Assembly (NCBI GenBank): GCA_016748015.1
Contig: JAAOMT010000109.1
Span: 145,820 to 209,819, forward strand
DNA: 64,000 nt
Reading direction: 5' to 3'
Origin: Geosiphon pyriformis uo1
Taxonomy: Eukaryota; Fungi; Glomeromycota
The translations under genes and the position numbers were made by a program. The notes under the pieces were generated by a model, which saw only the letters and a program-made list of their open reading frames with translations, had not been told where the DNA came from and searched no databases. Shown here piece by piece: positions 20,721 to 61,519 of this stretch (position 1 is the first letter of the stretch; each line of letters begins with the position of its first letter).

Positions 20721-20721
<1 letters not shown>

Positions 20722-30872: not shown

Positions 30873-30873
<1 letters not shown>

Positions 30874-30902: not shown

Positions 30903-30903
<1 letters not shown>

Positions 30904-35216: not shown

Positions 35217-36106
35217 ATGGAGAATATTAATATGTTAATTCCTCAGCAATCAAAATTTACAGCCAGTGACAGAATTGTGTTAAACGTTGGTGGTGTTAAG
35301 GTAATTTGTCTTGAGTCAAGAAACGAAACATAAATCTTTTCTCATTTCTGAATCTTATTCTAGTACGAGACCTATAGGTCAACATTGACAGCATACCCGG
35401 ACACACTGCTAGGAACAATGTTTCAAAATCGAAATTCTGAATTGTTGAATTTGACGAACGGCAATGAATACTTTATCGATCGTTCCGGGCATCTCTTCCA
35501 CTTTATAATGCAATTCTACCGAACAGGTTGTCTAGTGTGGCCAAAAGAAGGTGCGAGTCATTTGCTTATCGATTGCCAAGAATTTTTGTTTGTATGGGCT
35601 GACAGCATCTTTCTTTTTAAGGTTCATCAATGATGCCAATCGATCGGCGTGAATTGAGTGAAGAGTTAGACTACTTTCTAATTCCAAGAATTCATCCATT
35701 TGATGAACGAATCGGTCGAGAAATCAACAATTTTACTGAATCCTTGATTGATGCCTTACTTTCCGTACTTTGGGCAAAACAACCGAACTCTGGGGAATTT
35801 ATCGAGATCAATTTTACCTTTAAAATTCTACAATACAGTTCCGTTAGTTTCTTTTCCAAGGATGATTCATTAAGCTATGATCGTCTCAGGTCCTTTTTAA
35901 AGAGTGATCGAAATAACACAATTTATATGTTTAAACAATTTGGCGAAGAAATTGGAAACCGTCTAGAACGAGATATTCCTGGATTTAGTTGGACACTTGA
36001 AGAATTAGAAGAAACCCAAAATTGGATTCATCAGAAAGGAATCCAGGGTAATGTAAGAATGGTTTACATAATGGAACGACAAGCGATAAGACACCTTGTT
36101 GCTTAG
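35217..36106 (+). CDS. KCTD/T1-type BTB/POZ domain protein
   Basis: DRIVLNVGGVK|YETYRSTLTAYPDTLLGTMF...NEYFIDRSGHLFHFIMQFYRTG...ELDYFLIP. Exons 35217-35300, 35364-35550, 35622-36106 in phase. Confidence 0.92.
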
Positions 36107-37081
36107 TTTTTAAAATGGGCCACAGACGAGAAATTGTAATTTGGGTGGTTTAATTAAAATTTGTAGGCTTGATGTAAATATTGTAGGATTTTGTACAGGT
36201 CTATGAGAATTGTTCAAGTGGTAGGTTTAATTTATTGCTATATTCTATTACATGGACGGTTACTTCTTATTTTCTTTTCTTTTCTTTTCTTTTTGTAATT
36301 ACTTTTTATTTCTTTTTTGTAAAAAATGAATAAGTATTCGGACATTTTACTTTCATTAAAAAAGGAAATCGAAAATTGGCCATAAAATTTCTAAGCTGAT
36401 AAAAAAAATTATTTATAAAACAATTCTGAGATTTAAAAGTATCAAATTAGCATAATAAAGAATAATTTGATTTGACCCTTTATAAATTTTTAAAAATTGA
36501 ACCTATTTTTTCATTTTTCATTAATTTTATAGAAAGCTAAGAAAATCAAAAAAAAAATTTCAAATGTTTAATGTTCATTCAGATATTATATTTAAAAATA
36601 TATTAAAAGGAATTATTTACTAATTCATTACAAAAAGTTAAACCATTATAAATCAAATAATAATTCATTAATAAGTTATATATTCAATTTTTTTTACCCA
36701 TCAACACTAATCATAATTTTTTTTACTTTATTTATTCTTGAACCTGTTTTTAATTAAAACTTGTTACTTTATTTTAATAAAATTACAACTTCTTGACAAA
36801 GAAAGCAAGTTAAATCTTAATTTAATAATTTTTTGTGTTTTAATGTTTTGTGTGCTTAGTATCTTGGAATATTGTTTAAAATATTATAAATATTGTCTAA
36901 AATGTTTTATGAATTTAGTTAATTTTTTGTATTTTTAATTTGATATTTAAAAATAAACAAAAAATTATAGAATTAATATTTGTAATTAAAATAAAAAATC
37001 TTTTAAAATTATTTTTTAATATTTATTAATAGTAGTAAATATTTTTTTGATTTAAATTAACATATATTCTAAATAAATTTC

Positions 37082-37084
<3 letters not shown>

Positions 37085-37116
<32 letters not shown>
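37085..37116. repeat. (ATT)n microsatellite
   Basis: Perfect run of about ten units. Confidence 0.9.
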
Positions 37117-38068
37117 GTGGATTTTTAGCTCTTAATTATTTTTTTGATTTATACGTTTTTTTGATATAAAGTCAATTTTTGTTTACCAAAAAGCAATATA
37201 TCTTACACTAATTTTTACTTTTTTTATTAGGTTTAAAAAATATATATTTTTTAAACTTTATAATTACCAAGATATTTAATATATTAATTTTTGAAAATAT
37301 AATATTACACTTTCTTTTAAGACTAAAAATTTTAATTGTTACATTGAATGTTAAAGATATTTGTTAATTTTTTTATCGAATTTCAACATTTAGCTGTACT
37401 TTTTAGATAGAAATTAAAATTATTTTTCTTTTTAAATTTAAAACCAATATTACAATTTTTTATAATTTTTAAAGAGTTAAATTTCAATTTTAAAATTGTA
37501 TAATCTTTACAAAGAGAATATATGTAAAAAAATTTTTATATATATTAACAGGCGATAGGTTTAAAATCATCAATAATAGAAGTTCCTGTAAACTTTAATA
37601 TCCAGTATTCGTGAATTTAACACACATAACATGTCTATTAGGAAAATATAATCAAAAATTACCATATATATATTATGAAATTTTGTGAAATGAAAATTAT
37701 GGAAAAAACAAAACCTTGAACTTTTTTATATGTTTTTGATTTAAAATTGATCACAAAAATTCCGGTGTTAAACATTTCACACAATATATATAAATATATG
37801 CTTACTGGTTAAGAAATTGGTACAAAGATTGTTAAGATAATAAACCATATAACCAAAAATTTTCATAATTAATTTATTTACTTTCCTCCTTTCTGAAGCA
37901 ATCAACCTAAAATTTCAATAAAAGTCTTAGAGTAATATAAATGTGGTACATAGAAATCTGAGAAAATAGTTTGAAATAGAAATTTGATTTTATAATGCAC
38001 AAACTTGTTTTGTTTAAATTAAAAATTCAAATTTTATTTGCCATTTAGAATTTAGAATTTTATTATTA

Positions 38069-38086
38069 GACACACACACACACACA
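38069..38086. repeat. (AC)n microsatellite
   Basis: gacacacacacacacaca. Confidence 0.85.
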
Positions 38087-39436
38087 AGTAACTTTAAATC
38101 GAGTTAGATTATTTAATCTCCAAACTTTAAATAATACACAATTGTTTACTGAATGGGATTCCAAATCACTTACTTATATAGTGAATTTAAAAACCGGCTT
38201 TACATCGTAAAAGGATATTCATTTTTCAAGGCGGTGAAATGCATTCAGAAACAAGAATTTTCCGGAAAATAGTGAGAACTCCGTAAAAGTGAAGCTTTTT
38301 CACAAAAAAATATTTAAATTAACTTTAGAAATTTTCAATGTTTCTGTTTTGAATCGATTATTTTTCTATTAAATTATCAATTTCAATAAAAAGATTTTGG
38401 CAATTGGTGAATCCTAAATAAATTTTGAGATGAAATTGATTTGTGAATTGTAAAAAAAAAATCCAAATAAATAACCATTTGCACATTGTTACACATATTT
38501 TTTTATCCGAAATTTTAATGTATCACATAAAAATTAAAGTTTTCTTTTTAACCCTCAATACCCCCGTCATGTCACATTTGGTATGACCAATCGTCCGTAC
38601 AATTCAAGTTGTCTTCCATACGACCTAAATTTAATTATTTAGGGTTGCACTATTTGGAGAATTTCTCACAAAATATCATTAATAAAAAGAAATTAATGTA
38701 AAACTTTTATGATGAGTTCATTCTAAAAAATTCAAAGTGAATTTTTAGAAATGATAGCAAATGACATCACATCCCCCTAGTTCCCAGTGTTGAAAGAATG
38801 TATTTGAATAATTGAAATCTTTTTGTTAGAAAAGTAAATTTCTTCAACTTAAATGTAGATCTGGTTGTTGTTCATATAGTTAAAAAAAAAACTTTTAATT
38901 TTCTAAATACTCTCACCATTTAGTTTGACAAAGCCAATAGTGGGAAACGGCATTGATTTTTAGTGTTTCCTAAAAACTGTCTGCTAAGAAAGTTGGCTTT
39001 TTAGTTCAAAAAGGGAATTCTTCAAATAGATGGTATGATTTAATCAAACAATGAATCTTTTAGCATTAATACCATTTCAAAGTTTCACAAAAAAGTGTAA
39101 TTTATTTGTCATTTGTGGAATGACACGCTTTTCAACTTGCATACCATTGTTAGTGTGTCACGACTTTCATTGTCAAATCGAGTCGAGGCAGATTTTATTG
39201 AAATAACAACGAGTTAAAATGATTTTTTGGCTTTTTGCTTTGTTCTCCTCTGTTTAAAAAGCCTGATTTGTTGTTAAATGCCGGGTTTTTAATTATTAAA
39301 AAAATGTTCAGACCAGAGTGGCCACTGTTCATTCAATTTATGCAAAAAGAAATTCAGCTAATTAAAATCTTCCAGATTTATCAAAAATATAGGATCTCCA
39401 ACTACTAAAATTTCCAAATTAAAAGTTCTTTGTTGA

Positions 39437-39440
<4 letters not shown>

Positions 39441-39497
<57 letters not shown>
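39441..39497. repeat. (ATT)19 microsatellite
   Basis: Perfect trinucleotide run. Confidence 0.95.
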
Positions 39498-39500
<3 letters not shown>

Positions 39501-40208
39501 CAATGCAACAAAGAACTATAATTAAGTTTCCTTTGTTTATAATAGTCTTTCTTTGACAAATTATTCCATTTCATGAAATGTTTCTGGTCTTTTCTTACGG
39601 CTTCAGTAATACTTCCTGTCAAGTTTGTGATTGAAAATGAGGGGCTGTAAATAGGCTGATTGAATTTCTTGCTTGAAGGCAATGTAGAAGATGAATCTAA
39701 AACATACTCCTGTCAATTTTATTAAATGAGTATTTTTTGCCGGATTGAACATTTTTTTATCAAAAATCAAAAATCTTGAAATCAATCAATAAAATTATTT
39801 TATCTTTGAGATCACGTCATCGATAATCACCTACGTTGTTGCCGTGAGGTTATCCCATTTTTAATGTCTCATCATTTGATACAATTCCTTGATTTTGTGT
39901 TTAAGAATAGACGAAATGGGTATATTGAAAAAAGAAAACTCAGGCAAGAACCAATTGAGACAGATAATAAGGCTTTTGTGAAACTTAAAAGATTTCAAAC
40001 TTTATAAATACATAAGAATTAGTGTTGAAACCTGAATGACATACGGAGGCCTTTTCTCGCCAAAAAATTAAATCACTTTCTCTATGTTCGGCTTCCTTTT
40101 GCAAGTTTCTTTCAAATATTATACTTTCACTTTCATTTAAGTACTATTAAACGCATACACACTCATTTTTAATTTTAACCTTTTCCTTGCCCAAACAAAT
40201 ACAACAAA

Positions 40209-41204
40209 ATGCCACCTCATAGACAATTTCAAGGTTTACCCTTCCCCCATTCTCCCTCCGAAATTTTTATCCAAAGAAAACAAGATATCGAACAAAACCA
40301 AAATTTAAAATCTTCGGTACGCGTGTGTCTAGACAATACACTTGATCCTCCACGTTTTACTCTGTTATTCTCTAGCCATGAATATCCTCCATTCGAAACT
40401 ACGTTGCATAGTGTGGAGGAACTTGTTAAAAAATGTAATAATCAAAGGAGTCCCAATTCATGGATGATATTTCGTATGACTATTCAAAAAGCCATCACTG
40501 AGACTGGACTTCGTATAACACGTGGCGATGTTTCTCGTCTTGCTGGGAAAGCATGGAGAGAAAGCCCAATATATATTCAAGAAAAGTTTAAAAGCATTTT
40601 TCTACAAGTGAGAGAGCGTCTGAAAATTTTGAATGAAAATTTGGTAATGCGAGATATTCTTGATATGAATGTTTCGATTTCAGAAAAAAGTGAGAGAATC
40701 TTTTAAAATCTTTTCGTGTGTATTTTCTTCGTGGCCTCAAAGAAATTTTAATCACATGAGTTCTTAAATTGAATAGGTCATCGTCTCAAACCATCATTCC
40801 AAACAGTTAACACAAATCAGGGGCCAGAAATTTTTTCATTTTTAGACCCCAATATTCAGCCTTTTACAACCTCTTATTCATTGCAACCTGAACAACAACA
40901 ACATCCTTACCCATCTGAAATATCCACAAATTTACAAAATCCTCATATGATCGATTTTCTATCGCAAAATAATATATACCAATTATCGGAAACTCCAGTA
41001 TTACCACAAACCACTTTTTTTCTTGATCCAGCCTTGGAATTCAATCCATCAAAAATCTCAAGTATTCAGTCAACGATTGTTGGTGACCATTTTAATGAAC
41101 ATCATTTAGATAACAAGGTTCTTTCCGATAGTCAAGATTATCTAAACTCCTCAAATACAAGTGAAATTTTTCATGGATACTGCAACTCGAGTTTTCACAA
41201 TTAA
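40209..41204 (+). CDS. MATA_HMG-type HMG-box transcription factor
   Basis: RSPNSWMIFRMTIQKAITETGLRITRGDVSRLAGKAWRESPIYIQEKFKSIF fits the RPxNxFxxFR...ISxxAGxxW HMG box. Exons 40209-40689 and 40777-41204 join in phase; Q/S/P-rich tail. Confidence 0.85.
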
Positions 41205-42699
41205 AAGCTAACCAAATTATGCTGCGGTTTCTAGAGAATTTTTATTAAAAATAAGCAAGTTTGATAAACCAAAAACCTGCAAAACTTTTGGCTTAAAGAA
41301 AAAGAACTTTAAATTTCTATCCTCTTTTAAGAAGATTCCGCCCAATTTTTTAAGTTTTCCAATCAAAGAGTTAAATTGAATCCAATATAAATATTTAAAC
41401 AAAAAAATTAGTTTCCAAGATCTGCTGAAAATTTTTATATTTTTTCAATATCAAATACGGGTTTAATTGGATGATTTCATAAATTATGACAATATATTGA
41501 AGAGTAAAGTTTTATAGCACAGCAGAAACATCTCCGTAAACGATGTTATGCACTGCTTTAACGACATCCTCTTTGTGATATTAATAAACTTGTTTAAACG
41601 TCGTGATCCATTTTTAAGAGATTTCTAAGCAATTTAATCAGCTAAAATATCGTGAAGGAGATTGTCTAATTGAGAATACAAATTACAAATCAGAAACACT
41701 TGATTCAAATGAATACACTCAAGAGCTAAATATATGTTTTTAGTTTAAAGCCACACAGTTGACCCTTTTAAATTTCTTTTTCGATATATATCACATTTGA
41801 TGTATACTCTATCAAATTTAATGAAACCAGTGGCAGGTTTTGATTCAATGTAAAAGTAATTATAACAAACCTCTTGGGTGCTTTTTAACCTTATCAATGA
41901 CATCATGCGACACTATAATAGAAATACTATAACTATTTTAATATCAAAATTATAAAAATAACAAGTACATTGTAGATTAACCCAATTTGGAATACAAGAG
42001 ATATCAAAAGATAAGCACACTATAGTAAAAAAATAACTGGCTAAAAAACTTTTGAGAAATGCTGAATTTTAATATTTTTGGATAAACTAATATCTAAAAT
42101 TAAGTTAATAAAATATTCAATTACTTGGGCTTTACAAATAAGATAAATAACATTGTTATTATTAACAAGATCTATTTAACAAAATTATTTATTTGTTTTT
42201 AGCATTTATTTTTGTAATTAAAAACTTTTGTAGATCTTTTAAAATTCTAAATGTATAATAAATTGGCCAAATGTGATGTGAACTGAAATTTTTATTAAAT
42301 TTTTAACTACTAAATAGAAGTCTGATTTTTAAATAATTTCTAAAGATTTTAATTTTCGTGAATTTTTAAATGTTTTTACTTTTAATGCTTTATTTTTGTT
42401 ATTAAATATCAAAATAATTGTATTTAAATTAAAAATTAAACCTGACTTTGACTTGTATTTTTTATTTTTGAAAGATATACTTATCAAGTTAATAACTAAT
42501 ATTTTATTGTTTTAATTAGAAAATCTTTTTTAAAGAAATTTATATATATCTAATTGAATCTTAAATTAAAAAGTCAATTATTATTTTTAAAATTTAAAGA
42601 AAACATTGAAGAATTATTGCGATTTTAAAATAAATAACCAGTAATTTAACATTAATAATAAATTAAAAAATCTTAATTTTAAAATATTTAATTATATTA

Positions 42700-43168
42700 A
42701 AGTTGTTATTATTAATTAAAATAAGATTAATATTAAATTTTTAATTTTTATATTGTTTAAACTAAAAATTCCAAAAGTTAAATCAAATTTTTTGTTATTT
42801 ATTTATTAATTATTTATCTGAATTTTATTATTAGATTGTAAATAAAATAACAGTTATTTAAAAAGCAATAGCAAATATAAAAGCAGTTATTAAAAAAAAT
42901 GTATTTTTTATTTTTATGTTTAATTAATTTTTAAATTGCTTTTATATATTTAGTTACTTTTTTTAAGTTTTGAATTTATTATTTTGAAAAAAAGTTTTAG
43001 CTTTTATTGATCATATTATTAACAAAAACAAAATTATATTAAATTTAAAAAAAACAATTAAAAGTTCAAAATTTTCTAAAACACAAAATTAGTATTAACT
43101 TTTTATTATTAAAAATTTATAAAATTACTAAATTATTTAATTACTTATTTTACAAAAATATAAAATAT
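42700..43168 (+). mobile_element. Extremely decayed Ty3/Gypsy pol (RT thumb), left half of host element
   Basis: LAFIDHIINKNKI (cf. FLGHIIxxxGI) and KITKLFNYLFYKNIKY (cf. SKIAKPLxxLLxKD). Reading continues after 50922. Confidence 0.55.
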
Positions 43169-43928
43169 TGTTATGGGTTGGAGTAATAAGCTAACAGATA
43201 GCAAAAGAGAACAAAATTGTAAGGTAATGAAAGAAATTAAAGGAATTCAATTTCAAAGAGCGAATTAAATGAGTATGAATTCAATGTATAAGATTAGTTT
43301 CATAAAATATCTCAGTTACTATACTTTTCAAAAGATAACTGAGGAATCTAAAGATAGAGGGATAGTCTATTCTGTTAATAAATAATCACACTAGTATAAT
43401 TCTATGTCTTATGTCAGCATTCTTAGAATTCAATATCAGGTATCAAATATATTCTTTAGTCATATTTTATTCAATAATCTTCAAATACTACAATTATATG
43501 TTTTAGAAAAAGGTAAAAAATAACCAACAAGTAATTTTTTATCTTAAAATATTTAAATAGTTAAAAGTAAAAAAAGAGAAATTAGCAATAAGAAAAGAAT
43601 TGAGATGAAAGTTGTTATTTTATTTATTTTATTTTCTTGATTTCTGACATGCTTTTCTATAGCTAAGAGATTCATTGCTTATATAACTATTAAAAGTAGT
43701 TAATGATCAAATCAATAATTAGATTAATAATCAGGTTAATAATCAGATCAACAATCAAGTCATTAATTAAATCAATAATCAGGTCAATGATTAGGTTAAT
43801 GATCAGATTAATGGTCAGATTATTAATCAGGTTAATGATCAATATCTAAAAATAGAGTGATTAATTATATGATATTAGTAACTAATACATATAATAATTA
43901 ATAAAAAGTATGAGTTTCAACTGTAATA
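43169..43928 (-). repeat. 3' LTR of family-A Gypsy (760 bp)
   Basis: TGTTATGG...CTGTAATA (terminal CA decayed to TA); direct repeat of 50252-50918; adjacent purine tract GAAGAGGATAA on the minus strand at 43929-43939. Confidence 0.92.
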
Positions 43929-46900
43929 TTATCCTCTTCAAAAAGATTAAGCTCTAGTGAAATTAAGATATTTATGATGTAATTTATTTGAAAAGTTTTG
44001 TTTAATTCAAAGCTAACTAGTTTATTGAAGTTTTTAATAAATAAAGTATATAATATTTAAGGCAAAATAAGTTTTGTATTCAAAAGACCAAATCTTTGTA
44101 TTAAAGTTTTGGCTCTTTTAACAATAGTTAAAACTTTTGGGACATCTAATCATATAATGCCCAAAATTTTTGTCTGTATCTTTAAAGTTGTTTTTTTTAT
44201 TAGTTTCATGTCTTCTATGATTTTACCAAAGTAACTATAGAGTTTTAATTGTCTTTCATATAACAAGTTTTTGTCTATGGGCAAGATTTCTTGGAATGTT
44301 TTTTCAATTGTGCTAAAAGATAGAAGTATAGCTGCTGTTATACTTTTCAACAAATATTTATCCATTTTACTACCAATTTTTTCTTTTTTGGTAGTGGTTT
44401 TTTTGGATTTAATAATAATATGTGTTCTATTATTATCAGTTATAGTGGTCTGTTTCTCAATGATCAGAGTAGCATTTGGATAGTTTTTGATTCAATACTT
44501 ATGGAGAGTATAGAAGATATTTTGAATGTTTTAATTCAGAAAATAATTATTTATGTTGATTGAAAATATCTCTGTTTTAGGAAAAGTGCATTTATTTATA
44601 CTTGATTTTTGCTAATTATTTGAGTCAGTATTACTACAATAGACAACTAATTAAGTCGTTTATAATATTTCTTAAGACATGTATCATGAACAAAACAATC
44701 ATTAAAGATTGTTTTGGATTGATCTTAAAGAATATAAGAACCATTGTTTAAAACTTTGTTGACTAAAAAAGATTCTTTTTACTGGCTAAAAAATTTATTA
44801 TCATAGATATTATCACTATCTGAATAGTATTCCAATACCAAATTACCAACACTTAAGGAAAGTGTTTTATAAGTTTTCTTTTTCTTAAGCTTTTTTTGAA
44901 ACTGTTTTATCTTTTTAAAGACAATTATTTGTACTTTTACCAATAAGTTAAGAATAGTATCAAGTCTTTTTTGCAAAATATCTTTATAATTTCTTATTGT
45001 AATTTTTTCAAAGAGTATTGTTTCAATGTCAGTTTTTATTAATAATGTTGCTATGTATCTATAAAACAGATAAAAAAATTCATAACTTGTTATGTTATGA
45101 TTCACAGTTTTATAAGCAAACAAAGCTAAAGACAGTACTTTGTCTTATAAGTTTGTTTTTTTACTGGTTTTGGCTAAGGTTTTACATAGTATTCTAATGA
45201 AATGTTTTATTAAGCTATTTGTTTAAAAATGGTAAAAGAAGAAAAGTTTATGATGTATTCCCATTTTTCTGCAAAGTTCTTTAACCAGTGTACTAAAAGA
45301 AACTCTTTTTCTATCAGATAAAAGTTCTTTGGAGCAGTTATGATAGCAAATAATATCTTCATAAATGAAGTTGGCTATTGAGACTGCTGTTTGATTTGAT
45401 GTGGCTTTTGCTTCTATCTACTTTGTAAAATAGTTGATAGCTATAATAATATATCTATTGTCATTAGAAGTTATTGTTAACAGTCTAATAACATCTATAC
45501 CAATTTTGTCAAATGATTGGCCAACAAAAATTGAATAGATATCTTCTTTCTTGTTGGATTTTTCTTTTCTTTGGCAAGTATTACAAGTTTTAATGTACTC
45601 AGCAATGTCTTTTCCTAAAATAGGCCAATAATAATAAGCTAAAGTTTTCTGAATTGTTTTTGTTTTTCCAAAGTGTCCAGCTAATGGATTAGTATACATG
45701 TTGTAGATTACAATTTTTCTTTCTTCAAATCTAATAACTTTTTGGGGACAGTTAGAATCTTTTCTATTTCTTTTGTAAAGTTGGTTCTAATGAATTAAAT
45801 AGAAATTTGTTTGTTTGTGCAAATGTTCTTTTTGCTGTTAAGTGTATTTTAGTGGATATTGTCTTTTAACCAAAATTTCTATTAAGGCAGAATAGTTGTC
45901 CAAGTTTATTATTGTGTATGTTTATAAGAGTATTACTAATAATTAAGTTGGTTTGATTAAAAAGTTGTACTATCACTGAATGGTAAGTTTAGAAAAAACA
46001 TTGGTGTTTTAATGATTTGCTTCTTTACAGTATTGAATATTATAGTCAAATTTATCTAAGTGAAGTATTCAGAAAGTTATTTATTTGTGTTTTAGCTTTT
46101 TTTTATTACACAGTCAAACCAAAGCTTAATGATCTGTTACTACTAGAAATTTCACACCAAGAAGATATTAGTCTCAGTAATTAGTAGTCCAAACTACTGT
46201 TAAGTATTCTTACTCAGTAACTAAATAGTTTTTTTCTGCTGGTGTAAAAGATCTACTGGGATATATTATAGCATGTTCTTTGTCATTTTTATCTTTTTAG
46301 AAAAAGACAGCATCAAGTCCATAACCAGATATATTAGTGTATAAAATAAAAGATTAGTCCAGATTTGGTTGTTTAAGAATTGGTTTAGTAACAAGTTTTT
46401 TCTTCAAAGTTTTAAAAACTTTTTGTTAATGAATGCCTCAATAATAATTGACATTTTTCCTGAGTAGCTAATTAAAAGAAAAGGCAATTTTAGAAAAATC
46501 TTTAATAAATTTGTGATAATAAGAAGCCAAACCAAGGAAAGAGCATAGTTTAGGAACATTTATAGATTGTTTAATGTTTTGGACTTTTTCAATTTTGGCT
46601 GGGTCAAGGAAGATTTTATCTTTTGTAATAAGATGACCAAGAACTAAGTAAATTGTTATTTAAAGAAAGATTTAATTAAGTTTATCTTAAGGCCAGTATT
46701 TCTAAGGAAATCAAAACCTTTTTACAAGTGTTTAAGATGTTCATTTCAGATTTTTGAGTATACTATTATGTTGTCCAAATAAGCAAGAACAAAGTTTTCT
46801 TTTACTAATTCAAACACTTTGTCCATTAGGCATTGAAAGATAAGAGAAGTATTAATGAGACCAAAAGGCATGACTGTGAATTCATATGTACCATACTTGG

Positions 46901-49900
46901 TAATAAAAACAGTTTTCTTTCTACTTTTTGAATTCATTTTTACTTGCCAGAATTTAGCAGTTAAGTTAATGATTGAAAAAAAAGCAGCACTATTAAATTT
47001 GTTTAACATTGTATTAATTTTGGAGAATAAGTACATGTTTCTTATAGTAATAATATTTAATTAGTAGTAGTTAACACAGAAACATAGGGTTCTATCTTTC
47101 TTAGATACTATTACAACTGAAAAAGTTCATTTACTCTTGGTTTTTTGTATGAATCCAAGATTTTTTATTTGAGTTATTTCTCTCTTGATAAACTCATCAT
47201 TGTGCTGATTGAATTAATAAGACTTCAAATAAATGGAACAAGTTTTTTTGATGGTAATAGTGTGTTGTATCATATGGATTCATCCAGGAGTGTTATTTTT
47301 TTTTGAGATAACTGGGCTATTTCTAGCCAACAGATTTTTAATGACTACTTTTCTTTCTTCAGAAAAGAGTTTTTTTTGTTCTACTGCAAGTAATTAGATT
47401 TCAGGTGATTCATTCTCAAAGAATTTTTGTACTTCTCTTAGTTTTTCTTTGAGTATCAAACTAATTGGCTACCAATCTTTGTAATAGATCAGACAAAATT
47501 TGTATTTATTACTAAGAGAATACAAAGATTTATTGCACTAGTATCTAACATAAAGACCATGTTATTAATAATTGTATTTGGTTTTTTTGCTAGATTTTCT
47601 GTCAAAAATTCTTTTGAGTATGTCATAGTAGGGCCAGCAGATTAATTTGTTATTTACAATGATTCTTTTTTTGTCAGCTTTGACATTATCTAGTGGCTTG
47701 TTATTGCTAATGAAGATAGTATAGGCAAGTTTAGCAGTTTCTTTTTGTTTTTCTTGATCTTTTTTTCATTGCTCTTATCATCATCTGATTCATTTGATTG
47801 TTTTTCTTTTTGGTTTGCTTGGATGCTAGAGAGATTGTCTAATAATAGCACTTAACTACAATAAATTTCTTACTACATCTAATAGTTAACTCACAAAGTT
47901 TATAGTCAAGTAGTGCTTTGGCTTTCTTAAGCCATTCATTGCCAACAATTATGGTATACTTTTTTGCTTCAGATACTCCTATGTCAATTTCAATGTTGAT
48001 GCCATTGATGGGAACAGAAACAGCTTTGGCTATACCTAAGTCTTTCTTCTTATTACTATGTATATTGGTCATAGACTGGGTAGAAGATTTATTAATCTTT
48101 CTTTCAATGGCTTTCAGAAAGTGTTTGGCAATTATACTAACAGATAATTCACTGTCTAAGATCAAGTCAATAAAATAACCAGTCACTTGGGCTTTGCAAA
48201 TAAAAAGGGTAACATTGTTGTTATTAACAAGTCAAGTTTGGCAAAGGCACTTGTTGGTTTTTGGTATTTTTTTTTTGAAATTAATGATTTGTGAAGATTT
48301 TTTCTGAACTGTAAATGAATTATTAGTTGGCCAAATGTAATGTGTACTGGGGTTTCTATGAGATTTTTAACAATAGAATAGAAACCAGATTTTAGTACTA
48401 TTTCTGGAGATTCTAATTTTGGAAGATTTTTAAAAACTTTAGTCTTTGGTGGCTCATTGTTATAAACAATTGATGTGGATACTTTATTTGGGTTCAGAAT
48501 AAAATCAATCTTAGCTTTTTTTTTCTTTCTTGTTGATTTAGAAATATTGATTACTAGTTCATCTATGTCATAGTTATTATTAATTAGGTTAAAAACAAAA
48601 AAAGAGTTTTCTTTTAGTTGGTTTGTACTCTTACCCTTTAAAAATGCACCTACTAGTTTAAAGACTGATAAACAGTGGCTTTAACTAAAGAATTCTTTCC
48701 AAAGAAATTAATGTTAGCATGATTGAGTCTTTGATTGAGTACATTATTGTTGTTAATTCTGTTGTTTTAATTATCATTATTTCTAAGAGCTAAAGAAGGC
48801 AGAGGAGAATTGTTGCAATCTTTGAAAAAATGTCCAGTTAATCCACAGCAATAATACACAAGTGGGCCACAATTTTGTTGTCTTTGATAAGGGGGTTGCT
48901 GGGGCTAATTAAAGTAGAATTCATATCTGGGTCTTTGAAATTGTTAATTCTTTTTGACTGCTTGAGCTAAGAGTTCTAATAACCAGACAAAATTGGCTGT
49001 AAATCTATCTATCAATTGTTCATTAGGATCTAGAGTTTGAGCAGCAAAAGAAATGGCAGTTATTTGAGGAGCAAAAGCCATAACAGAAGCAGGAGCAAAA
49101 ACTGAAAATGTGAATTCTAAGTGCATCTTTTGATTGTTTTCAATTCATTGAGTTAGTTCAATAATTATATCTATTGTAAGATTGTTTTTCAGAACCAAAA
49201 GAGACCAAAAAGCATATAAGAGATCAGTTCTTAATCTTTTTGTAAAAGAATGAATTTTCTGCTTTTCTGTCCAGTTTCTTTTAAAGTCTATTCACTTGAT
49301 TAACTTTCTGATTGCTTTGGTGTATTTAGTTACAACTTTACCAAGACTTTGGGTTTTTTTTTCTAATTCTATGCATTATTTGGATACCAAGATAAGAATT
49401 TTAAATTTTATTTTAAACCAAATAATAAAAAAGATGTTGTTCTTTTTAGTATTTGCTGATATCTATTTAATAATTCTTTACTGAGCATTGGCATTGGTTT
49501 TTTGTGAGAACCAAGTAGCAGAAGAGCCTTGAAGGTAGCCACCAATAATTTGAAACTTGTATTCATTATTATATTGGTTGACTGTTATAACTCTTTCAAA
49601 GTTATTTAATCATTCAATTGGATCTTGTATATTATCTCTAAATAATAGTAATGATGTATTGTTTTTTTGCTCTAAAGCAGTTTGTATGCCTTAGAGGACA
49701 ATCAGAATATTTTGTTGTATAAAGTCATTAGCCATTGGTTTAAGAATAGCTGTTTGTGTAGAATGTTCTGATTTATTTGAAAAGAGATCAAAAACAGAAG
49801 CAGTTTGATAACTTTTTTTTTTGTTTCAAAGAAAGTTTTAGCTAGTTAATAAACAGCAATCTAAATATAAATTTGGTAATTTAGGTATTCAGAATTAGAG

Positions 49901-50226
49901 AGCTGTTGTTCAAAAGTTGTAAAATATAAAAGCTGATTGATGTTGTTATTTTTTTCTTCAAAGTTGTCTTCAAAATAAGTTTGGTCAAAATAATAGTTTG
50001 TGTAAACTGTATAGATTTTAGCTAAATGTTCATTTAGGAACCAGTTTCAAAAAGTTTGAAATTGTCTACTGGATTGTTTTTCAATGGAAAAGCAAATTAA
50101 GCAGAAAAGCAAAGAATTGAGTTTAATAAAGTCTAGATTGTTTTTGTTGTGTGCTTTAAAGTATTCTTCTAATTATTGTGATAATAAATAATCATCCATA
50201 CAATAAAAAACAAAGTCAATTTTAAC

Positions 50227-50245
50227 AATCTCACAAAAAGCACCA
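50227..50245 (-). promoter_or_regulatory. Primer-binding site, probably elongator tRNA-Met
   Basis: Minus strand TGGTGCTTTTTGTGAGATT starts 6 nt inside the 5' LTR boundary and resembles the complement of eukaryotic elongator tRNA-Met 3' ends (TGGTGCcccgTGTGAGg). Confidence 0.6.
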
Positions 50246-50251
50246 CTTTTA

Positions 50252-50918
50252 TGTTATGAATTGGAATAACAGACTAACAAATAGTAAGGGAAAACAAAAT
50301 TATAGGGTAATAAAAAGAATTAAAAGGAATTTAACTTTAAAGAATGAATTGAATAAGTATGGATTCAATATACAAGATCAGTTTTATAAAATATCTCAGT
50401 TATTATACTTTTCAAAAAATAACCAGAAAATTTGAAGATAAAGAGATAGTTTATACTGTCAACAAATAATCACATACTGATATAATTCTATGCTTTACAT
50501 TAGTGCTCTTAAAATTCAATATTAAATATCAAATGTACTTTTTAGTCATGTTTTATTCAATAATTTTCAAATGCTACAATTACACATTTTAGGAAAAGGT
50601 AAGAAATAACCAACAAGTAATCTTTTATCCCAAGATATTTAGATACTTGAAAGTAGGGAAAGAGAAATTAGCAATAAGAAAAAGATTGAGATAAAAGTTG
50701 TTATTTTATTTATTTGATTTCCTTAATTTCTGATATGCTTTTCTACAGTTAAGAAATTCATTGCTTATATAGCTATTAAAAGTGGTTGATGATCAGATCA
50801 ACAACTAGATCAATAATCAAGTTAATAATTACTATCTAAAAATAGAATGGCTAATTATATAACATTAGTAGCTAATATATGTAATAATTAATAAAAAATA
50901 TGAATTTCAACTGTAACA
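50252..50918 (-). repeat. 5' LTR of family-A Gypsy (667 bp)
   Basis: TGTTATGA...CTGTAACA; TGTTA/TAACA inverted termini. Confidence 0.92.
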
Positions 50919-50922
50919 ATAT

Positions 50923-52200
50923 TAATAAATTTTTAAACAATAAAAAGTTTTTATATTCTAAAAAAAAAATTAAATATAATTATAATTTTTATTTATTTTA
51001 ATTATAACAAAAAATTTTAATTAGCTATTAATGTTTTTTATATTATATTTAGTATTATTTTATTTTAATTAAATAATAAAATACACAAAAAGTAATTATT
51101 TATGTTAGCAGAACTTTAAAATTTACTTAAATCGAATATTTATTAATTAAACTAAAAACAATAGTAGTAATTTAGACTTGTAAACTTTTTTGACAATATT
51201 TTTTAACCAAAAAATTTGATATTATTATTTATAATATTAAACTTAAATAACTTAACAATACAAAAAATTAAATATAAAACAATTAAATAATCTAAATTTT
51301 TAGTTTACTACAAATTTATTATATATATAAATTTGACAAATTTTATAAAAATATTAATAAACTTTTAGAAATAAGACAAAATTAATATTAATTAAACTAT
51401 CATATTAATATATTACGAACAAAAAACAGTAAATTCAGAAAACTATAATAATTTTAAAACATAGTTTTTAAGTAAAAAATATTTTTTACAATATAAATAA
51501 GACAATATTTTGTACAAAAAAATAATATTTATTATTAAAATTTTAAATATTAAAACATTATTCTTGGTCTTATATACAAAAAAACATTTAACAATATATT
51601 AATTCTTGTAATAGTTGTCAAAAAAAACTTAATTTTGTAAAACCTTTTAATTTAATCAAAATTAAATTATTATTTGACAAAGTTAAAATTAATTACATTA
51701 AAAGATTACTTATTACAACAAAAAATTAATATATAATATTATAAATTATTTTATAAAATAATTTAAAGTAGAGTTTTTTAAAAAAACAAATAAAAAATTA
51801 ATAGCAAATTTTATTTATAAAAACATTATTTATAAATGTAAATATTTAATAAAATTTTTATTTAACCAAAAAACACATTTTATAAATAATCTAATAATAA
51901 ACAGTTTATTTTTTTTGTAATATTTTGAAAATAAATAATAAATTATAATTACTATATTAAATATTTTTAAAAACAAATAATTGAAAAAAGCCAAAAAAAT
52001 TTTTTATTATAAGTTTTATAAATTGTAAATTCATAATAAAGCCAAATTTATAATAATTAAATACTAATATTAAATAATATTTTTTATAATAACTTAGCAA
52101 CAATAACAATAACAATAAAATAACAATAATATTAACTTTAATAATTTTAAAAATTTTGAAAAAAAGAAAAAAAAGTTAAATTAGCTTTTATTACTTTTAA
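50923..52200 (+). mobile_element. Extremely decayed Ty3/Gypsy pol (RNase H-integrase), right half of host element
   Basis: YINSCNSCQK (~51595-51625) and LFDKVKINYIKRLLIT (cf. PFDRVGIDYIGPLPxT). Confidence 0.6.
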
Positions 52201-52821
52201 TAACAAAAAAAACTTTTAAAAAATATGTAAAAAATTAATAATTAATAAAAAACTTATTTATTGACTATATTATAATATGTTCAAAAGAATATTTAAATAA
52301 TAATAAAGAAAAAAAGCAAAATAGAATTATAAATGATATGGCTTTTATATTTAATATTAGTTAATTAATATTTTTATTTTTCAATTAATAAATACAAATT
52401 ATTTTCAAAAATTAGGAACCAATTAGTTTGATTTTTAATAAAAAAATTAAAACAATACAAAAAAAATTTAAAAAAAATACCAAAAATTTAATTATTAGCA
52501 GTTAAGCAAAAAAACTCTAATAAAAAAAATTGAAATATTAATATTAAAAATCTGTTAGTTTGAAATAAATTAGTAATATTAAAAAAAAAAATTTTAGCCA
52601 AACAAATCTTATTTAACATGTAATTAAAACTAAAAATATTTAATTTATTTATTTAAAATTTTATTAATTAAATTAGTAAAACAATAAATTTATTAAAAAA
52701 AATAGATTAGATAAAAAAACTGTATTTATTATAAAACATAAAACTTATAAATTTACTGTAATGCTCTTTAGATTAATAAATACTTTATTTATTTTTAAAA
52801 ATTAATATATAAAATATTTAT

Positions 52822-54330
52822 TTGGCCAATTGGCTTGAGCATTTTGAATTCCAAGAAGTTTGCTGAAGTGCAGAATAGTTTACTTGGAATTTGGTCTGGT
52901 GCATTCAAGATTTATACAGATGGTTTATTAAAAAATGCTGGCTTTGTGGCTGTTGCTAGTAGTACTGCTGCATATTTTTTGGCATTAGATATGTGTGTTA
53001 ATATTGGAGTTTGTGGTCTTGTTTCTTTTACTATGGCTGAGTTACAGGCTGTTGCTTTGTCTTTAAAATATGTTCCATTTTCTTGCTCCTTGGTTGTGTA
53101 CCTTAACAGCCAAGCTGCTATTAATGTATATGTGTCAAAAGCAGTATTTGCTACACCAGATTTTCATAACCCATGCTGAATTGAGAGAAGACATATTGTC
53201 AATTTGATTAGAGATAAGGATCTCAACATTAATTGAATCAAGATTAAGGGTTATTCTGATGTTTATAGTAATATTAAAGCAGATGTTGCTGTTGATGTGA
53301 CTGCTGATTCTCCTTTTTCTTTGCCAGCAAGAGTGTGTAAACATTTTTTAATGGTTGAAAATTCTGCTGTTTCTGACAATACTCACTATTTTGTCAAGAA
53401 TATTTATGGATCTATTTGTTATACTTATTGGGAAGCTGGTCCTGATCATAGTGTGGTCTCTGGTGCATTTGTTATGAATATAAATTGGGCAATAACTACA
53501 AAAGTCTGGCACTTTAACTCACATATACTTGCTGATTTTACAAGTCAAAAGTCATCTAATCTTTATACTTACTTGATAAAGACTGTGCATGAACAGTTGT
53601 TGGTAACTGTTAGGAAAAGATTGTATGATAGAAGCTATCCTAGTGTGCTGTGTCTACTGTGTGATGAAGTGGAGTTGTCAGATCACATTTTCATTTGTAC
53701 TCAAAATGCTGGCATTCAGGAAAAATTTTTGGCTGAAGTTTCTATATGATGGGCTGCTTTGACAGATAATTGTGTTTTGTTTTCCTCTGCTGTTTTGCAG
53801 ATGCTCTCTCATTGTTTGTCAGATTCAGGAATTTATACTGTTGTATACAAGATATTTGTGCTAAAAGATTGGTTTATAGAGGCTGTTGGAATTTTTGAAA
53901 GTAAGAAGAAAGCCATTTCTGCTGTTGTGAATTTTGTGAGGTGTTTAGTAAAACTGTATTGTTTTAAAGCATGACTCATAAAGTCTAAGTTTTGGGTTAA
54001 CATAAAAAAAGCTGGTTTGGTTGAAAATAGTGGTGTGGTGTTGGATTTGTCTTGTAGTGGGATGTCATTGCTGTCAGATGATATGGTCAGGATGTTTGGT
54101 ATTATTGAGTCTTTTACTATTAATTTTGGCTATTAAAGATCTTGTCTATTTTATTCTGGTCTAAATGGTAATGTACATGTTAATATAAGTGTATAGTATT
54201 CTCTTGTCTGGTCTGAATGACTAGCCACATGTAGTAAGTATGTGAGTTGCATTTAGTTTAAGCCATTTAGTTTGGCTTTATATACTAGATAACAATTAGG
54301 CTTTACTCATTAAATATATTTAATATAAAA
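52822..54330 (+). mobile_element. 5'-truncated non-LTR retrotransposon (RNase H + C-terminal CCHC), copy A
   Basis: IYTDGL, MAELQAVAL, YLNSQAAI, IKGYSDVYSNIKAD RNase H motifs; CLLCDEVELSDHIFIC knuckle; A-rich tail; TSD AAAATATTTAT (52811-52821 / 54331-54341). Confidence 0.88.
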
Positions 54331-55984
54331 AAAATATTTATATTAAAGAATTAATAATTTTTTATATATTTTACTAATATAATTGTGTATTTAAAACTTG
54401 AAATAAATATTTAGATTATCTTTAAAAAGTTTTTAATTTAGCCAAAATAAAAAAGTATAAAAACTTAAACAATTAATAAATGTTTTCAAATTATAAATTT
54501 TTCTTAAATTAGTTTCTATTACTAAAAGTTCATTAAAGATTTCTTTAAAATTACATATTTAATTAATTGATTTTTATAAAAAAATATTAATTATTATTGA
54601 AAATTTTTTAGCAAAAAACTCTTAAAACTTTTAAAAAAAAACTAATTATAAAGTTTATCTTAAAACAATTTAATTTTAATAAGTTATTTATTTTTTATAT
54701 TAATATTTTTAATATTTTTTGGTGTTATCTTGTTTTAAAAAAATAAAAAAAGAATATATTATGGTTTATAATAATAAAACTTTTTAAAAAGCAAAAAAAA
54801 GCTATACAATTACCAAAAAAATATCAGCAATAATATAATCTATTATTTATTAAAATAAAATATTTTATAAAAAAATAATTCAATATTTATAATAATTAAT
54901 AAGTTTTAATTTAGTTAAAAAACAAAAAAAATTAGACTACAAAAATTTTTTTTATTAAATAATATATTTAAATATTATAAAAAAACAAACAATTAAAATA
55001 CAAATATTCTATTTTATTTAATTATATAATAATAAAACAAATTAGAAATAACCAATTAAATCAAACATAATAATTGATTTAAAAAACTATTAATATTTAT
55101 TAAATTTTTGAATAAAAAACAATATTCATAAAAATATAATCAACAGTAAAGAGAACATTTGCAAAAAAAATCAAATTTTTATTTAATTTATCAAAACCAA
55201 TTATATAAAAAAATTAAAAAAAATCTTGATTAATTACAAAAAGTTATTTAATTTAAAAAAAATTATGATATATAATATGTTTATTAATTTTATAACAGAA
55301 TATTTCAAAAAAACAAAGACAATTTAAAAAATATTAATAAGATATTATTGACTAATTTTAATAAAAAATATAATAAAATTTGTAATATCTGTTAATAAAA
55401 AACTAAATTTAATTAAAAAAAAAACATTTATTTAATTTTGTTAATTAACTTTTAAATAAATTAAAATAGATATTATTAAATTTTTAATAATAATCTCTAA
55501 TAAAAATAAATATATTATAATTACAAAAAATTACTTAATATAATAAGTAAAAACAAAAGCAATATTAAATTAACTTTATTTACAAAAAAATTACTTTTAG
55601 ATAAAAAAAAAGCTTTTTTTAGCTTATTAATAAAAAAAATTTGAAAAACTTAAAATCTATTACAAAATTTTTTTTTATTATCTATAAACTAATAAATTAA
55701 TATATTTTAATTAAACATTTTGTAAAACTTTAACAAAAATCAATAAAAAAAATTTATAAAACAAAATTTGGTTTTTAATACTTTTTGTTTATAAAACAGT
55801 AAATTATGATATAGTTGATTATAAATTCTTTTATTTACTTTATAAATATATGATAATATTACTTATTAAAACCAAATATTTTGAAAAAATAATTAAATTT
55901 AATTATAAAAATATTTTACAACAAAAACTTAAAACAATATTAAATTTTTTAATAGAAACATAAATAATTGCTTATAAAAAAAAA

Positions 55985-56034
55985 TGTGCCAGATAGCATT
56001 TGGGTCTTACTCATTAAATGTTAATAAAAAAAAA
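55985..56034 (+). mobile_element. Ultra-short (~50 bp) 3'-end-only insertion of the same LINE family
   Basis: ccagatagcatttgggtcttactcattaaatg + A tail matches the last ~35 nt of copies A and B; flanked by A9TGTG / A9TATA. Confidence 0.6.
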
Positions 56035-56697
56035 TATATATATATTTTAAGAAAAACTCAAAAAATAATAATATATAAAATATATTTTTTAATAAATTCT
56101 CAATAAAAAGAACTATTTATAATTAATAAAATATTGAATAATAAATCTTTATATTTTATAAAATTAATATAAAATAATATTTAATAATTAATTTATTTAT
56201 AATACAAAAATCAAAAAATATTACAAAAAACTTAATTAGTTATTAATTATTATAATACTTACAATATTTATTAATAAAATACTAAAACAGTTATAAATAA
56301 AATTATTCTAGTTTTAAAATAAACATATATTTAATTAACATAAAAAATATTTTCAATTAAAATATGTAAAATACTCTTTTTATAATTCACAAATATTTAA
56401 TATAAACAATTACTTAGATATTTTACTTATTATTGAAAATCAAATAACAATTAGAAATAAAATTAAAGTACAGAAAATTAACAACAAAATAGAAAAATAT
56501 ATGCTTAAATACATAATTACCAAAATACTTTCTTTTTTTAATATATTATTATTAATAAAAAATTAAATTATTAATTAGTATAAATTACTTTTATAATTTT
56601 TATTATTAATTAACATATATTATTATTTTAAATTAACACTTATTATTTTACCAAATTATAAAATATTAATATTTAATTAATAACTTAATTTATATAA

Positions 56698-59600
56698 TAT
56701 ACAAATATAACTAATTATAATAATCAGATCATATAATATTTAAGAATTTACCAAAATATTTAAAAATTTAATAAAATATTAACAGTTTATTAAAATAATT
56801 AATAGTTTGTAAAAATAATTTGTAGTTTGCCAAAATAGATTATTAATTTGGTAAAATATTAGCAAAAAAAAATTATAAATTATAAAATAATATTATAACA
56901 AGTTATATAAATAAAAAACTTTTTTTTAAAAAAAAAAATTATTTTAATTTAATCATTTTTTAGCAAGCAATTAATTATTACAAATTAATTTAATAAAATT
57001 TACTTTAAAAACCAAATTATTATTGTTTAAAAACTAATAATTATAACTAATATTCTAAAATTGATTAATTATTAATTTTAATAATTACTTAATATGAATT
57101 ATAAACAATTTTTTTTATATATTTTTATTTAATTATTATTATTATTTTATATTATTAAGTAGTTTATTATTAAATTTTTTTATAAAAAAATTGACTTTTA
57201 TTTTAAAGTAATTACATATTATTAAAAAGTTTACAAACAATAAATTTCTGTAAAAAAATTAATTTTTACTACAAAGTAACTATGTAAATAATTAGTACAA
57301 ATTAATTATTTTATTATAAACTTAATAATAAAATAGTTTAAAATATAGAAAAATACTTTGAAAAATAAATTAGTTTATTAAAAATTTACTAGTTTTTCTT
57401 AACAATAAAATTAATAACAAAATAATATTAACAATATTTTTAAATAACAATAAAAATTTTTAATAATAATATTTAAAAAAACAATAAAAAAGTTTTATTT
57501 ATAACAAAAAATTGATATATAGAAAATAACTTAAATATCATAAAAAACTTGGTAAGATTATTAAAGATATAAAACTTTTAAAAAAAATGACTTTAAAAAT
57601 TCAGGCAGAAATTTTAAGCATTAAATATTTAAATATTTTAAAAGTTTTAATTTTTTTATTATTAAATATTTAATAAATATGGCTCAATCACTATCTAAAA
57701 GTTAAGAACAAACTAAATATTTTAATATTAAATAAAATTCACATATTTTTTACATATAATTAATTACTTAATTTAGTTTAAACTATACTATATTAATACA
57801 ATAAAAAAATTTACCTAAAAAAATTATTTTTTAAATTAATTTAAACAAAATAATATTATAAAAAACCAATGTCCTTTTTTTCAGCTTGATTTGCCTTTTT
57901 ATAGACAGTCAGGCTGTTTTGGATGTATGCAAATCGGAATTAAATCTGGTGTATCCAGATTTTTGGAATTGGTGTTGGATCAAGTATTGACATATTGTAA
58001 ACATTGTTAGGAAAAAGAATTTAAATATTAATTAATGTAAAGTCAAAAGTCATTTAGGTGTCTTGGATAATAAACGTGTAGATGCTTTCGCTAATACAAT
58101 TTCTCTTTCTCCCTGGTGCCTTTTTCCTGGCTTGGAAAAACATTGCATTTTGGTGGAGGGTAATGTTGTTTTCAGGAATTCTAGATATTTTGTTTATGAA
58201 ATTTTTGTTTTATTTATTGTGCACACTAGGAGCTTGGTTCTGGATCTAGAGTATTAGATAGTAGTTTGCTTTCGGATATAAACTGGTTTAGCTTGTCATC
58301 AGTATGGCATCTTAACTTACACATGACTGCTGGTTTTACTAGTAAGTTTACTGCCAGTACTCATACATACTTCATGAAAGCTTTGCATTGTCAATTGCTA
58401 GTTGCTGTTCAGAAGCATCTGTATGACAAACATTACCCCAGTGTGTTGTGTCTGTATTGTGAAGATGTTGAGGTTTCAGATCATGTTTTTTCTTGCATGG
58501 TTGATGATTTGGCTTGTTATTGTTTGTTGAATGTCCATACAACTATTTGGTATACACTTTCTGGTCTTTTTATTTCTTCTTTATGTGTATCTCATTTATT
58601 GTCATCTTGTGTTTTGAATGCTGCAGTGTGTACAGCTCTCTGTAAAAGCTTTGTTTTTAAGGATTGGCTTTATGAAACTGTGTTAGTTTTCAGAGATTCC
58701 AAAGCTATAAGTCAGAAGATTGTGAACTTTGTGTATGACTTCTGTCTTGCTTTTAGAGAGAAAATTTGGTTGGTTCATGTCAAGCATCATGCTTTCATGG
58801 AAAAAAATAGGCTAATATTATCTGATGGATCAATTCCAGGGTCAGTTTCAGGTTTGTCCTCATTGTTTTCTGCTGGTGTAGTTAAACTGTTAAGTATTAA
58901 TGAGATATTTGGTATAGAGTTTGGGTTTCATAAGCCTTGTTTGTTTCTCTTAGATATTGAAGGGCCTGTTTCTGTTTATATAGATGCTTAGTATTGTTCT
59001 AATCAGCTTGAGTGGCTGGTCGCATATAGAAAATACATGATTCACACCTAGTTTAGATCGATTATTTGATGTATTATACTAGGCAGTGTTTGAATCTCAC
59101 TTATTAAATGAATAAAAAAAAAAAAACCAATCTGACTAATCATTTAACTGTTTTCAAAAGATTAATTTTTATTTCAACAAATTTATAAACCCAAAGTAAT
59201 ATTAAATTAGATAATATTTTATTATTAACAACAACTTAACTTACAGAATTACCAGATATATTAATATTATTTTTTTTTCAACTTATCAACAACTTTGCTA
59301 AAAATATTCAAATATATTATAAGTTTATTAATCTTAAAGTTAAAAATACTGTTTAAAACAAAATTACTCTTAACAAATTGTTCAAACACAATTACTAGAA
59401 AACCAATAGACTCAACAATAAATTTAACTAAAGTATTAACTTGGTTAAATCAAACTTTAAAGAAATTAATTAAAAAAAACCAAAAAATTACCAACAATTA
59501 CAAAAAAAAAAACATATACTGTTTAATAAAAAAGAATTAGAAGTGCTTATAAAAGCAAAAGTCTTGACATAAAACTTAATATCTATAAAATAGGATACAA

Positions 59601-60280: not shown

Positions 60281-60289
60281 AGCAGTACA

Positions 60290-60987: not shown

Positions 60988-61519
60988 TTATTAATTATCC
61001 AATATTTTTTTTTTTAAAAAATAGTTTTCTATAACTTAAAATGAAATTATTTTTATATTAATAAAATTATCTATTATTATTAAATTCATGTTATTATTAC
61101 TTGATTAAGAATATTAATTATTTTTATTACTATTAACACTCTATATTAATAAAATCCAATACTTAACTACATTGAAATAATAGCTCTTGATTACAATTAT
61201 TAACAAAATATTAATTTTTTATTTTTTTTATTTTTTTTTGTTTTGTTTTTTTGTTGTTTATTAATTAATTAAAAAGATTAAGTGCTAAGTATTTGATGTT
61301 AAGAATAGTCTAATAAAAAACCCAGAAATAAAAGTAAAAATTTAAGAATAGCTTACCAGAAAAGTACAACTGCCAGATTAAACCAGTTATTACACTGAAA
61401 AAAAAAATTCATAAAAAAAACCATTAATTAAATCTCTGTTTATTATACAAAAAACTCAACCAAAATCTTCAAAAATTACCAATACAACTAACTATTGAGC
61501 ACCAAGTTATGAGTTTGTT

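Follow-up and report, generated by a model that had tools for sequence, protein, structure and literature searches.

The stretch analysed here, a 64,000-nucleotide (nt) window of contig JAAOMT010000109.1 from Geosiphon pyriformis, a fungus akin to the arbuscular mycorrhizal fungi, contains at positions 43169-50918 a minus-strand Ty3/Gypsy element that is dead and surrounded by older repeats. Using this element and its relatives, we show that transposon copies, once inserted, lose cytosines by C>T on either strand and whatever the sequence context, with the direction, size and confinement to repeats reported below. The element has long terminal repeats (LTRs), a target-site duplication (TSD) and the Ty3/Gypsy order of gag, protease, reverse transcriptase (RT), RNase H and integrase, laid out as follows.

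43165..43168, plus strand: left copy of the TSD, ATAT, 4 bp, from flank inspection
43169..43928, minus strand: 3' LTR, carrying an expanded array of 12-bp repeats at ~43686-43853
44650..45783, minus strand: integrase interrupted by stops, comprising an H2C2 zinc finger and the core
45980..46644 (approximate limits), minus strand: RT thumb and RNase H, one frameshift away from the RT
46660..47440, minus strand: reverse transcriptase with stops, YLDD changed to YLDN at 46772
47842..48231, minus strand: aspartic protease (RVP_2), catalytic DSG changed to DSE at 48150
48700..50200 (approximate limits), minus strand: decayed gag region; family copies have Retrotrans_gag and a zinc knuckle
50252..50918, minus strand: 5' LTR, with 103 transitions and 6 transversions relative to the 3' LTR
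50919..50922, plus strand: right copy of the TSD, ATAT, 4 bp, from flank inspection

The original prediction, made from the sequence of this stretch, held that the TSD survives; it does, and is now measured as 4 bp of ATAT, which could be a doubly decayed NCGN site or a target that had already decayed before insertion. The YLDN and DSE replacements claimed for the RT and the protease were found at the listed positions, and in the 650 columns that align with the element family 9 of 11 stop codons derive from Gln, Trp or Arg, in agreement with the proposed conversion of such codons to stops. Past the end of RNase H lie two stops at ~45970-45985 on the minus strand, and the metagenome relative P0110 also stops just past RNase H; a separate integrase ORF would fit this arrangement, and decay is another way in which the stops could have arisen. 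Only 2 CpG are left in the 7,750-nt element, so CpG is the fastest target and not merely one context among others.

We aligned the LTR pair with transition-neutral scoring. The 664 ungapped columns comprise 555 identities, 103 transitions and 6 transversions, two of which stand at an ambiguous gap and become transitions under the placement used in the original prediction, giving 4-6 transversions; a further 99 gap columns fall mainly in the 12-bp tandem array (43686-43853 and 50784-50830), which is 96 nt longer in the left LTR than in the right. The earlier hand count of 16 differences in the first 70 ungapped positions, all 16 of them transitions, was exact. Single CpG events can explain 9 of the 103 transitions and leave 94 that they do not explain, so that many changes are indeed outside CpG. 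When changes were assigned to one LTR or the other, 53 and 50 were obtained, with both strands affected in each, as had been claimed; thus both copies of the duplication were mutated after it arose. Taking C/G as ancestral and sorting by the 3' base, changes were seen at 37 of 72 CpA, 19 of 31 CpC, 37 of 82 CpT and 9 of 10 CpG sites, with no 3' preference among the non-CpG sites (P 0.30). Along the LTRs, changes on the two strands are not clustered (P 0.49 and 0.93 in runs tests).

Direction and sequence context of the mutations

Since the LTR pair alone cannot give the direction of change, three polarisations were used: distant homologues, read contigs and Geosiphon family proteins. With 150 distant homologues and residues common to at least 75% of rows, ancestral G/C had changed by C>T or G>A at 50 of 135 sites, and A/T had changed in reverse at 3 of 141. 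In sequencing run X1, which is perhaps the window's own source and not independent, and in which summed depth is not copy number, 45,894 of 2,090,870 contigs were aligned (80% likeness, 1% share). G>A occurred at 1,035 of 1,175 G places (88%) and C>T at 776 of 889 C places (87%), compared with A>G at 870 of 2,865 A places (30%), T>C at 623 of 3,272 T places (19%) and transversions at 564 places. Nearly all surviving G/C is therefore lost in some copies, and about three quarters of the A/T places are without a transition at the 1% level. Runs X2 and X3 contained nearly no element sequence (12 and 3 contigs).

The third polarisation used the best 120 of 191 protein matches, all from Geosiphon, retaining 463 of 489 alignments, 650 columns and 46,460 cells. 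Of 5,764 changes from the column majority, 4,832 were of the deamination type (C>T/G>A), 292 were the reverse and 640 were other. D>N was found in 550 of 2,654 cells and N>D in 2 of 2,708; likewise, E>K was found in 791 of 3,593 cells and K>E in 2 of 4,589. In the window copy, 151 of 492 ancestral G/C sites had changed by C>T/G>A and 7 of 599 A/T sites had reversed. The forward-to-reverse ratio of the window copy is 26:1; that of the family is at least 75:1. The claim that mutation is transition-only stands nearly, not strictly, as 10 transversions occurred among these 1,091 polarised sites. The family copies are inactivated and retain 77-96% protein identity to the family majority, and among the best 120 of 191 proteins no pair is more than 95% identical over shared columns.

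We also examined an RT/RNase H family that is read as non-LTR, aligning 105 of 120 proteins with a 48% identity cut; CpG sites could not be excluded there. This family is older and noisier, with 6,363 forward, 1,698 reverse and 2,807 other changes, and its direction is the same as in the Gypsy family (E>K 365/2,120 vs K>E 44/3,720). C:G>T:A transitions therefore dominate the repeats, and two unrelated classes of transposable element (TE) are affected. DNA copies of the element were found neither in metagenome contigs, searched by motif, nor in genome and viral contigs, searched by protein; 31 metagenome loci are distant relatives with guanine-plus-cytosine (GC) fractions of 0.33-0.64 and CpG observed/expected (O/E) ratios of 0.19-1.4, and they provided no usable control. 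No copy from Ambispora or another arbuscular mycorrhizal (AM) fungus was present among the best 120 of 191 matches to the Gypsy family or the best 120 of 147 matches to the non-LTR family.

In 13 formerly CGN Arg columns of the Gypsy family, 196 of 821 cells still carry an intact CpG. The intact share drops from 35% in the lowest load quartile to 11% in the highest, and CpG loss and non-CpG load increase together. By arithmetic, the per-strand hazard is near 0.7 at CpG and ~0.14 at other cytosines, a ~5-fold difference. CpG deamination alone does not account for the spectrum, as non-CpG sites have changed at ~0.13 per site against 34 reverse transitions in 19,630 cells (0.0017; K, N, F and Y), an excess of at least 75-fold. 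Where a site is certainly non-CpG, the changed share depends on the 5' base (Kruskal P 2e-13), 5' T being favoured (0.19), followed by C (0.15) and A (0.10), and 5' G being protective (0.085), and the 3' base has no effect (C 0.15, A 0.13, T 0.11; P 0.16). CpT is mutated as well, at 0.11 per site in the family in addition to its 37/82 in the LTR pair. The 5' order is the same in the window copy (0.41, 0.35, 0.26 and 0.20 for T, C, A and G; P 0.017), where sites that are non-CpG by construction changed at 28 of 88 CpC and 23 of 79 CpA. TpC is highest and GpC lowest in the non-LTR family, and the composition of old relics points the same way (TpC O/E 0.53-0.69, GpC O/E 2.3-2.4). Taken together, the context hierarchy is CpG >> TpC > CpC > ApC > GpC.

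Host genes and surrounding repeats

The window offers an internal control in the form of a block of host genes adjoining the repeats.

8000..41950: host gene block, internal control, with Zn2Cys6, F-box and HMG-box genes; 543 CpG in 33,951 nt, the last at 41908
15346-18404, 27480-28505, 29067-29654 and 40179-41204: host genes, a Zn2Cys6 factor, an F-box and an HMG-box protein among them
42000..64000: repeat zone around the Ty3/Gypsy element, where older Gypsy relics of ~10% GC lie alongside relics of non-LTR RT/RNase H type; 13 CpG across 22,001 nt
500-2400, 52750-54200, 57950-59200 and 62400-63900: relics of the RT/RNase H family, without recognised LTRs and read as non-LTR
54400-57700 and 3400-6000: very old relics, ~10% GC, GpC O/E 2.3, TpC O/E 0.66-0.69

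The F-box gene (27480-28505, minus strand) has a Geosiphon pyriformis protein as its best match, at 100% identity (7 matches among 1,876 candidates), and its next-best matches are from Ambispora, at 57% and 53% identity. The host therefore belongs to Glomeromycotina and lies outside Dikarya. The fungus had been described as apparently non-Dikarya, and a Pezizomycotina species with ordinary repeat-induced point mutation (RIP) is thereby excluded as the source. The HMG-box assignment scores under the Pfam cut-off, and the gene at 29067-29654 presumably resembles a peroxiredoxin. The left edge of the host block is marked by an abrupt increase in CpG density, with 13 CpG in 400 nt at 8018-8417. 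Another repeat has copies at 2415-3134 and 60295-61017 in opposite orientation, with 75% identity, 104 transitions and 31 transversions.

The CpG density of the window switches near 41,900, between the host block and the repeat zone. In four host open reading frames (ORFs), fourfold sites have 27-30% GC and 33 CpG lie across codons, where 32.5 are expected. ORF-free host DNA (17,283 nt) has a GC fraction of 0.22 and a CpG O/E of 0.79; old relics reach a GC fraction of 0.10. Compared with two Ambispora orthologues, the host F-box gene, which is under selection, has changed toward AT at 10 sites and toward GC at 14. Judged by composition, the signature is confined to repeats and single-copy DNA is spared. 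A forward-to-reverse ratio of at least 26 would not leave host DNA at the observed GC and CpG values, and a similar AT drift in single-copy DNA was not seen, as measured by host composition. The very old relics at 54400-57700 and 3400-6000 are the end state of this cytosine loss. The one-way, broad-context, repeat-confined C:G>T:A mutagenesis proposed originally is thus supported both by the polarised counts and by host composition.

Mode of accumulation and candidate mechanisms

Mutational load is widely spread among the 120 family copies, from 2 to 28% (chi2 875, 119 degrees of freedom (df), strong overdispersion). C-strand and G-strand loads correlate (rho 0.75), and the strand share is without clear overdispersion (chi2 123, 119 df; 88, 98 df in the non-LTR family). 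Even the least-hit copies carry changes on both strands (2/87 and 2/93 in one, 4/108 and 3/131 in another). When we simulated rounds that each hit one strand of the entire stretch, the observed value was reached in 0 of 200 runs at each setting of up to 32 rounds, and in 3% at 64 rounds, so that 64 or more weak rounds could produce it. Since the strands covary, the strand share is not clearly overdispersed, changes occur on both strands even in the least-hit copies and the LTRs have no strand runs, the mutations accumulated in many small steps, as the simulation also indicates. Burst-like, strand-coherent mutation, a feature of RIP, was found neither in the LTRs nor in the two families. While the outcome is RIP-like, two RIP features that we tested, a CpA-type 3' preference and strand-coherent bursts, are absent, and CpG is the top target; RIP-likeness as a mechanism, which had been suggested, is not clearly supported.

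The process is probably, though far from certainly, a chronic methylation-coupled mutation involving DNMT1-type enzymes at CpG and DIM-2-type enzymes at other cytosines, gradual, site by site and compatible with mitosis. Repeat heterochromatin would be methylated continuously after insertion, a DNMT1-type enzyme acting on CpG and a DIM-2-type enzyme more weakly on other cytosines, and methylated cytosines would become fixed as thymine. The deamination step could be an enzymatic side reaction of the methyltransferase, or spontaneous with T:G mismatches left unrepaired. Phycomyces methylates TEs at CG and CHH, with genome-wide levels of 3.4% at CG, 0.5% at CHG and 0.9% at CHH (PMC11258239), and the CpG-to-other ratio of ~5 in Geosiphon, being near the Phycomyces ratio of CG to non-CG methylation, is taken to fit methylation coupling. 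AM fungi are reported to have DNMT1, DNMT2, DNMT5, DIM-2 and RID (PMC8298701, citing Bewick 2019). In Zymoseptoria tritici, Dim2 causes mitotic C>T mutation in repeats with no need for sex, and there, as in Geosiphon, C>T dominates in repeats and non-CpG sites are hit (PMC8016269).

Several observations weigh against methylation-coupled mutation. For Geosiphon the methyltransferases and the methylation are postulated rather than observed, and the enzyme list is second-hand, from other AM fungi. Load rises 2.7-fold across copies and background change only 1.4-fold (rho 0.24), so load is not a simple clock; moreover, the 120 family proteins come from gene prediction, which selects for open frames, so loads are underestimated and changes that create stops are invisible. 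Simulation of independent sites gave 103 ± 13, and the observed value lies slightly above it (P 0.06). The 5' preference of the family is absent from the LTR pair (T 38/79, G 14/28). In Zymoseptoria more than 98% of C>T falls at CA and CG is spared (PMC8016269), unlike Geosiphon, where CpG is lost fastest and no 3' preference exists elsewhere; the CA-specific, CG-sparing pattern of that mutator is thus not seen. A 2026 review gives CpT as the DIM-2 preference, again unlike Geosiphon, does not have 5' T among its listed contexts, and lists RID for Ascomycota only (PMC13297926). RID homologues are elsewhere listed for Dikarya, plus one likely bacterial transfer in a chytrid (PMC5751038), so that the sources conflict on RID in AM fungi (PMC8298701 vs PMC13297926 and PMC5751038).

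The original prediction favoured a poorly described dedicated system. A homology-triggered repeat-mutagenesis system in Geosiphon, RID- or DIM-2-derived or based on a recruited deaminase and having its own pyrimidine-C signature, is a tentative alternative; the data agree better with chronic mutation coupled to methylation, carried out by enzymes of known type. True premeiotic RIP, in which a RID-type enzyme of broad, lineage-specific context would act through numerous weak rounds in addition to ordinary CpG decay, appears unlikely. In its favour, the signal is as large and as pure as that of RIP, load is strongly overdispersed and only weakly tied to background change, and no two copies exceed 95% protein identity among the best 120 of 191. 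Single rounds of RIP are strand-biased, and the Neurospora preprint drawn on below scores the strands separately; in Geosiphon, by contrast, no strand clustering appears in the LTRs or across copies of the two families, even the least-hit copies are affected on both strands, and neither CpA nor another 3' preference is present (P 0.16). RID is reported for the AM-fungal clade (PMC8298701), which favours this reading; against it, a single Neurospora cross gave 3,163 mutations in an 802-bp copy among 24 spores (bioRxiv 115501).

Somewhat more doubtful still is an AID/APOBEC-like DNA deaminase with a TpC preference, acting on repeat chromatin as the source of the non-CpG part. APOBEC3 enzymes prefer TpC, and the 5' order in the family and the window copy, the TpC maximum and GpC minimum of the non-LTR family and the TpC depletion and GpC excess of old relics are all in this direction. 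The preference is only ~2-fold, however, and while single-strand deaminases usually produce strand-coherent clusters, none were found. APOBEC-type editing of retroelement cDNA is one-strand G>A and fixed before integration; such pre-integration editing is excluded, as the LTRs differ and both strands are affected. Ordinary ageing, in which an element once richer in GC would have undergone CpG decay together with a transition-rich AT bias of the whole genome, is very improbable: the genome is AT-rich and ORF-free host DNA (GC 0.22) lies below the element (GC 0.26), but with ratios of 26:1 or at least 75:1 neutral DNA would by arithmetic end at about 4% GC or lower, whereas fourfold sites of host genes hold 27-30% GC, the host F-box changes are not AT-directed (10 toward AT, 14 toward GC), and CpC and CpA sites that are non-CpG by construction changed. 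Ultraviolet damage in this surface-living organism was set aside, since ApC and GpC changes far exceed the background and host DNA escapes, and a sequencing or conversion artefact was rejected, since both strands are affected, genes are intact and the same variation occurs in the run X1 contigs.

Implications and comparison with known systems

We conclude that a real, strong, repeat-confined mutagenesis, methylation-linked or RIP-like, operates in a subphylum for which we found none reported. No report of repeat hypermutation in Geosiphon was found in literature whose coverage lacked the Geosiphon and Gigaspora margarita genome papers, Bewick 2019, Sorwar 2024 and the bioRxiv supplements, which could mention the signature or enzymes. 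LTRs make up 41.2% of the Geosiphon genome (PMC11952901), and RIP is not mentioned in the parts considered of that paper and of PMC13443276. A kingdom-wide survey of 1,239 genomes limits RIP-like signatures to ascomycetes (PMC12543289); Geosiphon and Ambispora are absent from the 12 of its 19 supplementary files that were searched, among them the species table, where Rhizophagus, Gigaspora and Diversispora do appear. RIP signatures are also stated to be undetected in Gigaspora margarita and Mucoromycotina (bioRxiv 2021.03.30.436303). Against that survey limit and these negatives, Geosiphon provides a case of decay on the scale of RIP and in one direction within Glomeromycotina.

The composite RIP index of the element is negative (0.98 minus 1.24), which means that screens based on this index can miss the process elsewhere. 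With 16% divergence and less than 1% transversions between the LTRs, LTR-divergence dates and TE landscapes in Geosiphon would be inflated, by an estimated 5-10-fold. Many 'hypothetical proteins' in public annotation are decayed TE pieces: this applies to all 240 listed, the best 120 of 191 matches and the best 120 of 147, the latter all being Geosiphon 'hypothetical proteins'. Two questions become testable: does a RIP-like process operate in mitosis in fungi other than Dikarya, and is RID active in AM fungi? If a dedicated system were present and depended on RID, the arbuscular mycorrhizal lineage would hold in it a molecular trace of cryptic sex.

Among known systems, RIP in Neurospora and other Pezizomycotina shares with Geosiphon massive C:G>T:A mutation in both repeat copies and the sparing of single-copy genes (bioRxiv 10.1101/115501, PMC4352252). 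A further likeness is that near-identical copies are absent among the Geosiphon proteins compared (best 120 of 191). In contrast with both the RID and DIM-2 branches of Pezizomycotina RIP, Geosiphon has neither a CpA or CpT signature nor strand-coherent bursts, and its composite RIP index is negative. The CpG/TpCpG bias of TEs in basidiomycetes and Tuber resembles Geosiphon in that CpG is hit first and most strongly and a 5' T raises the rate (PMC4352252). Unlike in basidiomycete CpG decay, single CpG events leave 94 of the 103 LTR transitions in Geosiphon unaccounted for, and losses at non-CpG cytosines amount to 13-35%, so other cytosines are not near background. The RIP-like claim for Entomophthorales such as Zoophthora radicans likewise lies outside Dikarya and concerns a Ty3-rich genome (PMC11105155). 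That claim consists of dinucleotide indices with stated caveats (PMC11105155), whereas in Geosiphon the index is negative and the changes were polarised copy by copy.

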